From assembly GCA_951406725.2 (NCBI GenBank), contig OX597822.1:98270001-98334000 (forward strand): a stretch of 64,000 nt of DNA. Direction: 5' to 3'. Position numbers and translations under genes: made by a program. This document shows positions 22,811-46,788 of this stretch, in pieces. This stretch comes from Octopus vulgaris (lineage: Eukaryota). The notes under the pieces are model-generated. The model ran no database searches. It was not told where the DNA came from and saw only the letters and a list, made by a program, of their open reading frames with translations. Position 1 is the stretch's first letter; each line of letters starts with the position of its first letter.

Positions 22811-22917
22811 ATTTCTTACTGAAGAATCTGAGGGCCTGTGGAAGATTGGCTTGATTTAATTTAATCAGGTTAGTTTACCATTAATCAGCAGATGAAACGG
22901 TATATCGTATAAGAAAT
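22811..22917 (+). ncRNA. Type I hammerhead ribozyme with long loop 2 (family B, unit 1)
   Basis: AUUUCUUA-CUGAAGA-AUCUG-(58 nt)-CAGAU-GAAA-CGGUAUAUCG-UA-UAAGAAAU; 8-bp stem I, 5-bp stem II, near-palindromic stem III, predicted GUA cleavage after 22909. Confidence 0.85.
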
Positions 22918-37319: not shown

Positions 37320-37397
37320 GCGGTACATATGTTTCGGGCCTTTATTAGACAGATTTATAACAATGCATAATGTATGTCTGTGGCCTTCTTCAGCCGC
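37320..37397 (-). ncRNA. Type I hammerhead ribozyme (family D) in an approximately 340-bp insert (37278-37615) between TA-type repeats
   Basis: Minus strand: GCGG-CUGAAGA-a-GGCC-(about 40 nt)-GGCC-c-GAAA-CAUAUG-UA-CCGC; palindromic ACAUAUGU stem III, GUA site. Confidence 0.72.
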
Positions 37398-42818: not shown

Positions 42819-43137
42819 AGGGCGCGTGGCTTAGTGGTTAGGGCATTCGGCTCATGATCGTAAGGTTGTGAGTTCGATTCCCGGCGACGCGTTGTGTCCT
42901 TGAGCAAGACACTTTATTTCACGTTGCTCCAGTCCACTCAGCTGGCAAAAATGAGTTGTACTTGTATTTCAAAGGGTCAGCCTTGTCACTCTCTGTGTCA
43001 CGCTGATTATCCCCGAGAACTACGTTAAGGGTACACGTGTCTGTGGAATGCTCAGCCATGTGCACGTTAATTTCACGAGCAAGCTGTTCCGTTGATCGTA
43101 TCAGCTGGGACCCTCGTCGTCGTAACCGACAGAGTCT
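42819..43137 (+). mobile_element. SINE with CORE-like 5' half and family 3 3' half
   Basis: Head and body like 2561-2700 (gttgtgtccttgagcaagacactt); from tgtatttcaaaggg onward matches about 29208-29380. Confidence 0.82.
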
Positions 43138-43344: not shown

Positions 43345-43733
43345 GTGGAGGTGCAATGGCCCAGTGGTTAGAGCAGCGGACTCGCGGTCATAGGATCGCG
43401 GTTTCGATTCCCAGACCGGGCGTTGTGAGTGTTTATTGAGCGAAAACACCTAAAAGCTCCACGAGGCTCCGGCAGGGGATCGTGGTGATCCCTGCTGTAC
43501 TCTTTCACCACAACTTTCTCTCACTCTTACTTCCTGTTTCTGTTGTACCTGTATTTCAAGGGGGCGGCCTTGTCACTCTCTGTGTCACGCTGAATATCCC
43601 CGAGAACTACGTTAAGGGTGCACGTTTCCGTGGAGTGCTCAGCCATTTACACGTTAATTTCACGAGCAGGCTGCTCCGTTGATTCGGATCAATCGGACCC
43701 CTCATCGTCGTAACCGACGGAGTGCTTCCACTA
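43345..43733 (+). mobile_element. SINE family 3
   Basis: Full length; TSD atatatttctgta on both sides. Confidence 0.9.
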
Positions 43734-44561: not shown

Positions 44562-44601
<40 letters not shown>

Positions 44602-44603
<2 letters not shown>

Positions 44604-45427
44604 TATAAGAAAAAGGGACAGGCAAAACAGGTTGATTGACCGCATACCGAAAAAATAGAAATAGCAGTCAAGAATGCTTATTTCTATCAAAGTTGGACTC
44701 CGGGCATGACAGACCCTGTAATTCACATATGCAAAACAGAAGGAATAGATAACGAATACGAAGTCTGGCGGTTATCTGTGAACATCATGTTTCTGGATTA
44801 TAAACATATTGAATATATATTGAATATATATTTTTGATATATATTTCATATACATTGCATATATATTTCACATCCTTCTTCAGCACAGCTTTCCATTGAA
44901 AAAGATTTATCATAGATTTATCAAATGCTACGTACCTCAAACCTTCTGACCATGCGACATCAAAATATTTGAAGGAAGTGAGCAAAAGCTAAACCTACAT
45001 AGACGTTTGAATTCATAAATCTTCCCTCCAAAATTTTGCCATGCGCATTACAAAAATAGTTCCATAAGATGGGGAACAATTAGGTTGTCAAAGGGAGTGA
45101 AAAATCCAAATAGTAATATAATAATAAAAAGTAAATAATTTCTATAAAGGCTTTTAAAAAAAACCCAATTATTTACTGGTAGAATTCGGTATGTAAATAT
45201 AGCCGATTACCGGCAGGAACTTCTGTAAAGTTCAGTATATATATATTGTATATAAGAAAAAGGGACAGGCAAAACAGGTTGCTTGACCGCATACCGAAAA
45301 AATAGAAATAGCAGTCAAGAATGCTTATTTCTATCAAAGTTGGACTCCGGGCATGACAGACCCTGTAATTCACATATGCAAAACAGAAGGAATAGATAAC
45401 GAATACGAAGTCTGGCGGTTATCTGTG
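44602..45427 (-). mobile_element. Retrozyme-like element, family F: 647-bp unit with 179-bp terminal direct repeats, between (TA)n tracts
   Basis: 44602-44780 repeated at 45249-45427 with one visible mismatch; (TA)n on both sides; internal HHR. Confidence 0.85.
44776..44888 (-). ncRNA. Type I hammerhead ribozyme with long AT-rich loop 2 (family F)
   Basis: Minus strand: CUGUG-CUGAAGA-a-GGAU-(long loop)-AUCC-a-GAAA-CAUGAUG-UU-CACAG; predicted cut between 44781 and 44780. Confidence 0.72.
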
Positions 45428-45659
45428 GCGGTTATATATATATATATATATAATGGCCTTCAAGTTTTGGTTTAAAAACCCTTTGAATAAAAAAGTCGAA
45501 GGCTTCAAAGAGTTATTTTTACCCAAAGTTTATTCGCTAAAAATCTACAGAATTCAACTTCGAGAAGACTTGAAATTAAGTTTTTTTTCTTTTAACTGTT
45601 GCGGTTAAAAGATAAAAAACTTAATTTCAAGTCTTCTCGAAGTTTTAAAAATTATGTAT

Positions 45660-46405: not shown

Positions 46406-46788
46406 GGAAGCACTCCGTCGGTTACGACGATGAGGGTCCGGTTGATCCGTATCAACGGAACAGCCTGCTCGTGAAATTAACGTGTAAGTGGCTGAGCACT
46501 CCACAGACACGTGCACCCTTAACGTAGTTCTCGGGGATATTCAGCGTGACATAGAGAGTGACAAGGCCGGCCCTTTGAAATACAGGTACAACAGAAACAG
46601 GAAGTAAGAGTGAGAGAAAGTTGTGGTGAAAGAGTACAGCAGGGATCACCACCATCGCCTGCCGGAGCCTCGTGGAGCTTTAGGTGCTTTCGCTCAATAA
46701 ACACTCACAACGCCCGGTCTGGGAATCGAAACCGCGATCCTATGACCGCGAGTCCGCTGTCCTAACCACTGGGCCATTGCGCCTCCAC
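46406..46788 (-). mobile_element. SINE family 3
   Basis: Reverse complement of 29003-29389. Confidence 0.9.

Follow-up and report, generated by a model that had tools for sequence, protein, structure and literature searches.

A young hammerhead retrozyme family in Octopus vulgaris and the position of its insertion ends relative to the predicted cleavage site

Known retrozymes and the insertion in the window

Metazoan non-LTR retrozymes, their circular RNAs and the hypothesis of a Penelope-like element (PLE) as their partner have already been published (PMC7229834; bioRxiv 10.64898/2026.07.22.740005), and circles have been proposed as the template for the reinsertion of animal retrozymes (PMC7229834). 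PLE insertions are recognized by their (TA)n bias, partial tandems, 5' truncation and an inverted arm (PMC8557442). In vitro, both target strands are extended by a purified PLE, which initiates at two internal sites of the RNA and works mainly on uncut templates; RNA-seq reads ending at the ribozyme site were not found in that work (PMC11167929). Here we describe a retrozyme insertion in a window of 64,000 nt of the Octopus vulgaris genome (assembly GCA_951406725.2, contig OX597822.1, positions 98,270,001 to 98,334,000 of the forward strand), together with the family to which it belongs; coordinates without a contig name refer to this window.

The insertion lies on the minus strand, and re-reading this strand confirmed what had originally been proposed, with a 647-nt unit, a 179-nt repeat and a type I hammerhead whose predicted cut falls at 44781/44780. 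The two copies of the direct repeat (44602-44780 and 45249-45427) are 99% identical over 179 nt and are spaced by 647 nt. The features are as follows.

44602..45427, minus strand: whole insertion of a non-LTR retrozyme, a single arm of 826 nt or 1.28 units (positions 1-647, then 1-179)
44781..45427, minus strand: one unit of 647 nt that begins with the 5' end of the predicted product and extends to the following predicted cut
45249..45427, minus strand: upstream copy of unit positions 1-179, with its 5' end at 45427 (+/-2 nt), the predicted start of the cleavage product
44602..44780, minus strand: downstream copy of unit positions 1-179, terminating at the TA-like start site A (unit ~177-192)
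44776..44888, minus strand: predicted type I hammerhead
44888-44884 and 44780-44776, minus strand: stem I, CUGUG pairing with CACAG
44883-44877, minus strand: core CUGAAGA
44876-44794, minus strand: long AU-rich stem II region of 83 nt
44793-44790, minus strand: GAAA
Within the hammerhead, minus strand: short stem III, ACA/UGU, with a 3-nt loop
Between 44781 and 44780, minus strand: predicted cut at a GUU site
45286..45312, with a second copy at 44639-44665, minus strand: motif common to sister retrozyme families
45426..45435, plus strand: 10-nt slip-back duplication of 45413-45422 at the 5' junction, with 2-nt microhomology
44564..44601: (TA)n target on the side of the 3' end
45434..45452: (TA)n target on the side of the 5' end

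The predicted hammerhead has the CUGANGA and GAAA core, the NUH site, the three stems and the open stem I of type I. It is non-canonical in that H17 is U (GUU) and in that an A-A mismatch (10.1-11.1) lies at the base of stem II, followed by 4 bp. No Rfam hammerhead match was obtained in the window at the gathering threshold, nor was there one among the nine hits at E<=10, and the hammerhead is absent from the circular minimum-energy fold of the unit. GUU is counted among the active NUH sites (PMC3138052), and a U-U mismatch at the stem II base does not prevent the cleavage of an axolotl retrozyme, whose monomer is weakly active (PMC7229834); eight of nine predicted Xenopus retrozymes gave no cleavage in vitro (bioRxiv 10.64898/2026.07.22.740005). 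Stems and core are nearly invariant within the octopus family (~117-139 unit pieces), which weighs little because the family is too young. One unit at locus L035 (G000:C20:24855272) bears GUC in place of GUU at the cut and provides a natural comparison.

The 647-nt unit at 44781..45427 is strongly structured (-166.5 kcal/mol, z -8.1 with 20 shuffles), and no stop-to-stop frame of at least 150 aa overlaps the element. The hallmarks of non-LTR retrozymes are found here, namely one type I hammerhead per tandem unit, non-coding sequence, no LTR and dispersed young copies, and the window element is a real member of this known class. No target-site duplication can be read at this copy, which has (TA)n microsatellite on both sides. 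About 1 kb to either side of the element lie the halves of an inverted repeat pair (43345-43700 and 46434-46788, 96% alike), a third copy of which is found near 43000-43135, and a near-perfect hairpin with 41-nt arms and a 7-nt loop (45556-45644) is located 130 nt from the 5' end of the element.

At the 5' junction, the upstream repeat begins at 45427 with the sequence of the predicted cleavage product, as had been stated, with an ambiguity of 2 nt. The 7-nt duplication noticed at this junction is present as a 10-nt direct repeat of period 13 (45413-45422 = 45426-45435); its first 2 nt overlap the first 2 nt of the unit, and the 5' end is thus fixed only to unit positions 1-3. The 3' end falls at site A, one of the two recurrent 3' ends of the family. 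What had been called a terminal repeat is instead part of 1.28 tandem units, and other copies range from less than 1 to 13 units with scattered 5' ends. The window copy runs past one ribozyme junction before it stops at the following one, so a single copying of a simple cut monomer does not account for it.

The family, its sister families and the likely enzyme

In the genome of 2.8 Gb, at least 112 matches to the element were obtained from the 40 scored of 1,414 candidates, and those of full length are 96-100% identical and lie on many contigs. A 22-mer spanning the cut has at least 312 exact genome sites, 448 sites are anchored at unit positions 142-160 and 185 are exact B-end sites (site B is defined below), from which the family size is estimated at 300-400 loci. 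Insertion ends were parsed at 145 loci other than the window copy, comprising 238 arms of at least 40 nt; pieces shorter than 40 nt were dropped. The 3' ends recur at two internal TA-like sites that run into (TA)n, site A at unit ~180 and site B at ~312, which together account for 185 of the 238 3' ends (49 at A and 136 at B, the latter inflated by a replication set that was anchored at B). Among the 116 3' ends of the discovery set, 28 are at A, 62 at B and 26 elsewhere. Two arms stand back to back at 80 of the 145 loci, and site A is paired with site B at 20 of the 42 two-arm loci of the discovery set. More than one unit is present in 55 of the 238 arms.

Divergence within a locus is 0.006, whether in the same or in the opposite arm, versus 0.0136 between loci, and private alleles are common to both arms at six loci (L015, L007, L020, L025, L055 and L068). 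These results fit the copying of one RNA species from both target ends at each insertion, and they are equally compatible with a circle and with a homogeneous multimer. Two loci, L042 and L070, carry arrays of 13 and 9 units of a 616-nt subfamily in which variants are common to subsets of units, pointing to later expansion at the DNA level. Array length alone is therefore not evidence of rolling-circle copying, and the view that long arrays are pure rolling-circle products was rejected. Classical twin priming on one linear pass was also rejected as a general model, since the inner end of an arm rarely matches the start of the other arm; L036 is an exception. A-to-I editing fixed in the copies was rejected because the private shared alleles show no asymmetry (2 A>G and 4 T>C, n=12), and so was a parent/daughter relationship of L037 and L039, whose junction letters differ and for which a hot spot is more likely. 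Of four assembled contig sets that we guess to be RNA, two (X2 and X5) each contain one contig of about unit length joining the unit end to its start; such a join counts neither for nor against circles because a tandem DNA array or a multimer gives it too.

The motif common to the sister families occupies unit positions 116-142. It is bipartite and 25-29 nt long, its degenerate pattern matches 6,987 genome sites, and in many hammerhead repeat families it sits between the cut and the 3' start sites; it may be an element for enzyme recognition or protein binding. Where the copies extend far enough, the sister families have a hammerhead 115-135 nt upstream of the motif, with the stem I variants CUACG/CGUAG, CCACG/CGUGG, UUGAG/CUCAA and UUGUG/CACAA and with GUC, GUA or GUU sites. 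A hammerhead is in range at 9 of 58 and at 17 of 82 motif sites, the four reference loci included, and the motif sites without one are mostly short copies or belong to families without a reference. Two sister families (L132 and L330) likewise combine GUU with a mismatched pair at the stem II base. This retention of the hammerhead with different but complementary stem I sequences upholds the original identification of the element as a hammerhead retrozyme. Among the sister loci L296-L335, two motif sites have an upstream hammerhead with the core variant CCGAUGA.

Elsewhere in the window, identical hammerhead motifs with an 8-bp stem I and a GUA site are found on the plus strand at 22819 and 23313, 494 nt apart and ending in a TA run; they are a second retrozyme family in the window. 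A single hammerhead motif with a GUA site at 37393 on the minus strand is followed within ~50 nt by a long TA-rich microsatellite and is possibly the 3' end of a PLE or of a retrozyme.

The octopus genome also contains a young element with 781-aa frames that carry RT and GIY-YIG, the RT match being just below the Pfam cut-off. The footprint of this resident PLE includes insertion into (TA)n, a pair of 3' ends separated by ~30 nt, partly tandem copies and arms in inverted orientation, and the retrozyme shows what is expected of a PLE partner: a (TA)n target, 5' truncation, an inverted arm and two internal 3' ends. Among 40 GIY-YIG loci (148 listed of 6,136 candidates), no ends of autonomous PLEs with the retrozyme motif or with pLTR homology were found. 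As a sequence link between PLE and retrozyme was not found, we infer the partner from the footprint. The PLE copies at loci L103-L113 (e.g. L113:1481-6326) are mostly 97-99% alike; in them an upstream frame of up to 479 aa overlaps the 781-aa RT-GIY-YIG frame, and a hammerhead-like motif with the variant core UUGAUAA lies ~70 nt before the 3' end.

5' ends and the RNA template

The 5' ends are scattered over the whole unit (145 loci, 238 arms), and ~167 of the 188 passes that reach position 31 continue across the cut (~89%). Scattered 5' ends in other copies had been named in the original prediction as an observation that would speak against it, and the ends of these copies are indeed largely scattered. 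Among at least 312 sites, four junctions at three loci lie exactly at the cut (the window copy, L032 twice and L036), and two further loci (L149 and L204) end at unit position 2. A genome pattern with a non-U base before the cut product gave six matches, namely these four junctions, one GUU-to-GUC substitution and one rearranged core, and a second cut-site pattern added two mutations and nothing else. If ends were uniform, ~0.8-1.0 exact position-1 ends would be expected in a family of 300-400 loci, so a single exact copy is not by itself beyond chance. For at least two loci with an exact end, the window copy excluded, P is 0.006-0.17 depending on the background, and one junction is found at the control position 632. 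Of 269 arm ends, 16 carry a slip-back duplication, and 12 of these ends do not lie at the cut; such duplications are a generic scar of the 5' junctions of this family, and the one at the window copy does not serve as the mark of a template end. With exact ends near chance, most passes crossing and the scars generic, the single match carries little weight, and the template is not usually a cleaved monomer; the exact match thus falls short of the independent support for the ribozyme that had been seen in it. At L032 (G000:C10:103205858), position 1 is reached twice and copying resumes near position 50 each time, which makes it the clearest repeated run-off at the predicted cut.

It is nevertheless evident that the density of 5' ends changes at the cut. 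The step test compares the ends at positions 1-30 with those at positions 618-647, that is, 30 nt on each side of the cut. The discovery set (71 loci) has 16 vs 5 ends (P = 0.021), and a replication with 60 further loci, for which the test was fixed beforehand, has 6 vs 0 (P = 0.017). All sets together give 23 vs 5 ends (P = 0.0008), or 17 vs 4 when counted by locus (P = 0.0055). In the automated parse, the ends per 10 nt are 8, 7 and 8 over positions 1-30 and 2, 1 and 0 just beyond the cut; correction by eye at three loci (L051, L058 and L073) brought the number of ends beyond the cut to 5, up from 3, and so worked against the effect. The end statistics omit 20 loci picked by full-length match or by cut-site pattern, except L004, L019 and L078, which were kept as they were also named by the replication list. 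The raised density spans positions 1-100 (hazard ~0.004 vs ~0.0014) and is mainly an effect of the first pass; in the unbiased sample, no later-pass ends are found at unit positions 1-7 (0 ends in 364 nt). Both arms end within positions 1-30 at 6 of 72 two-arm loci, and arm ends are correlated at other hot spots too. The excess of ends just 3' of the cut suggests that a minority of templates likely, though not provenly, end there. The proposal of a self-cleaved template is thus retained at the level of the family, in the form of this excess, and is given up for the usual template, in view of the read-through.

We consider that the window element is a young non-coding tandem repeat of ~645 nt with a predicted hammerhead, and that a Penelope-like reverse transcriptase-endonuclease likely copied it into TA microsatellites, for the most part using RNA continuous across the cut and likely, in a minority of cases, cut RNA, and we hold this reading to be correct with a probability of about two in three. 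A PLE-type enzyme would nick both strands of (TA)n and prime internally at sites A and B, and the continuous templates may be ligated circles, uncut multimers or both. The drop in end density at the cut would mark templates whose physical 5' end is the cleavage product, and joining and trimming could spread such ends over the first ~100 nt. In the window copy, the arm would have begun at site A, passed one ribozyme junction and halted at the next; the odds are about even between a multimer that was cut upstream and left uncut at the internal, probably slow GUU ribozyme, and a chance stop.

A more far-reaching interpretation, which we offer tentatively, is that the insertion ends record ribozyme cleavage in vivo. 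A PLE-type enzyme would then work on mixed templates, mostly ligated circles, and roughly a tenth of its passes would be made on linear RNA that had been cleaved. How large the step is would measure how often the RNA of each family was cut and left unligated in the germ line, and the motif at ~7,000 sites would serve many retrozyme families as the RNA element that recruits a single PLE protein.

It is also conceivable, although we consider it unlikely, that all templates are continuous, either circles or uncut multimers, that the pile-up of ends comes from RNA structure and microhomology hot spots, and that the exact end of the window copy is coincidental. Positions 1-100, where the end density is raised, pair with 320-430 in the predicted fold, and the other hot spots of 5' ends are inverted repeats and TA-like sites (94, 174 and 555-580). 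The generic nature of the slip-back scars, the number of exact ends expected by chance and the PLE results cited above (PMC11167929), in which uncut RNA predominated and none of the RNA-seq reads ended at the ribozyme site, all agree with such an explanation. So does the count in the sister families, where 4 ends at 1-30 vs 2 beyond the cut were found (P = 0.38) at the 47 of 78 motif sites that passed the filter, some of them scored against imperfect family references. However, the drop falls at the cut itself and was replicated (6 vs 0). A 7-bp inverted repeat (4-10/28-34) accounts for three loci, and the step persists when these hairpin-join loci are removed (17 vs 5, P = 0.0125). Moreover, ends are less frequent at stem III, which lies beyond the cut and likewise forms an inverted repeat.

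Far less probable is that a self-cleaved linear monomer is the normal template, with the enzyme jumping from its 5' end to its 3' end to make tandems and with insertions ending at the cut. Such a template would account for the position-1 ends of the window copy, L032 and L036 and for the position-2 ends of L149 and L204, but the crossing of the junction by ~167 of 188 passes and the scatter of 5' ends over the whole unit speak against it, and the map of ends largely refutes it. In addition, an enzyme that jumps at a linear end would be expected to leave frequent scars, like those of the 5' junctions, whereas only 7 of 158 read-through sites deviate within 30 nt upstream, one of these being a chance match to the flank. 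We give hardly any credence to a DNA-level satellite or a PLE-derived fragment with the hammerhead as an inactive relic: the GUU triplet, the A-A mismatch, the lack of an Rfam match, the inactivity of most predicted Xenopus retrozymes (8 of 9; bioRxiv 10.64898/2026.07.22.740005) and the DNA-level expansion of some long arrays would be in keeping with it, but retroposition is indicated by the dispersed young insertions, whose 3' ends are fixed and whose arms are inverted, the core and stems have been preserved, with compensatory changes, among sister families that diverge elsewhere, the GUU and the mismatch at the base of stem II recur in two of these (L132 and L330), and the axolotl retrozyme cleaves with a U-U mismatch at that place (PMC7229834).

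The preferred reading, in which a PLE-type enzyme copies mostly continuous and sometimes cut RNA, makes hundreds of young insertions a countable record of retrozyme reinsertion and of the role of the hammerhead in Penelope-type transposition. The predominance of passes across the cut is in line with circles or uncut multimers, and the density step suggests that cut RNA is sometimes used. An in vitro test is easy to design, since the start sites are fixed at two positions, the motif is shared and the frame of the resident PLE is intact. As the class is already known, the gain is incremental, and what deserves testing is the step seen at the cut across the family.

Comparison with known systems

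The octopus family resembles plant LTR retrozymes in its non-autonomy, in its hammerhead and in a size within their range of 600-1000 nt. As described in the available portions of the sources, plant elements possess true LTRs that each contain a type III hammerhead, as well as PBS/PPT and TSDs of 4 bp, whereas the 179-nt repeat of the window copy is a partial tandem unit, its single type I ribozyme lies outside the repeat and no TSD is readable. In a known system with another ribozyme class and another enzyme, the ribozyme cut can likewise set the run-off point of the reverse transcriptase; here, such run-off applies to a minority of insertions at most.

With metazoan non-LTR retrozymes (Cervera and de la Pena 2020, PMC7229834; Li, Clavereau and Pollet 2026, bioRxiv 10.64898/2026.07.22.740005), the family shares tandem non-coding units with one type I hammerhead each, low GC, a structured unit, co-occurring PLEs and no LTR, PBS or PPT seen. 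The unit length of the window element lies inside the range of 51-972 bp given by Li et al. (bioRxiv 10.64898/2026.07.22.740005), but it exceeds that of the experimentally studied metazoan retrozymes (170-400 nt), and the element has an 83-nt stem II region and a GUU triplet. The octopus family has mapped insertion ends, with two starts, two arms and a step at the cut, which are not among the features of metazoan retrozymes reported in the available portions of PMC7229834 and bioRxiv 10.64898/2026.07.22.740005; a literature search, with little coverage of subscription journals, found no publication mapping retrozyme insertion ends against the cut site.

EN+ PLEs (PMC8557442; PAc in vitro, PMC11167929) are similar to the octopus retrozyme in their (TA)n bias, partial tandems, 5' truncation and inverted 5'-truncated arm, as well as in two internal 3' starts, a hammerhead near the 3' end and a mostly uncut template. 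Unlike these elements, the retrozyme has no ORF, and its starts are ~130 nt apart rather than 30-40 nt. Both of its starts are TA-like and resemble the target, whereas the start site of PAc is not homologous to the target (PMC11167929).
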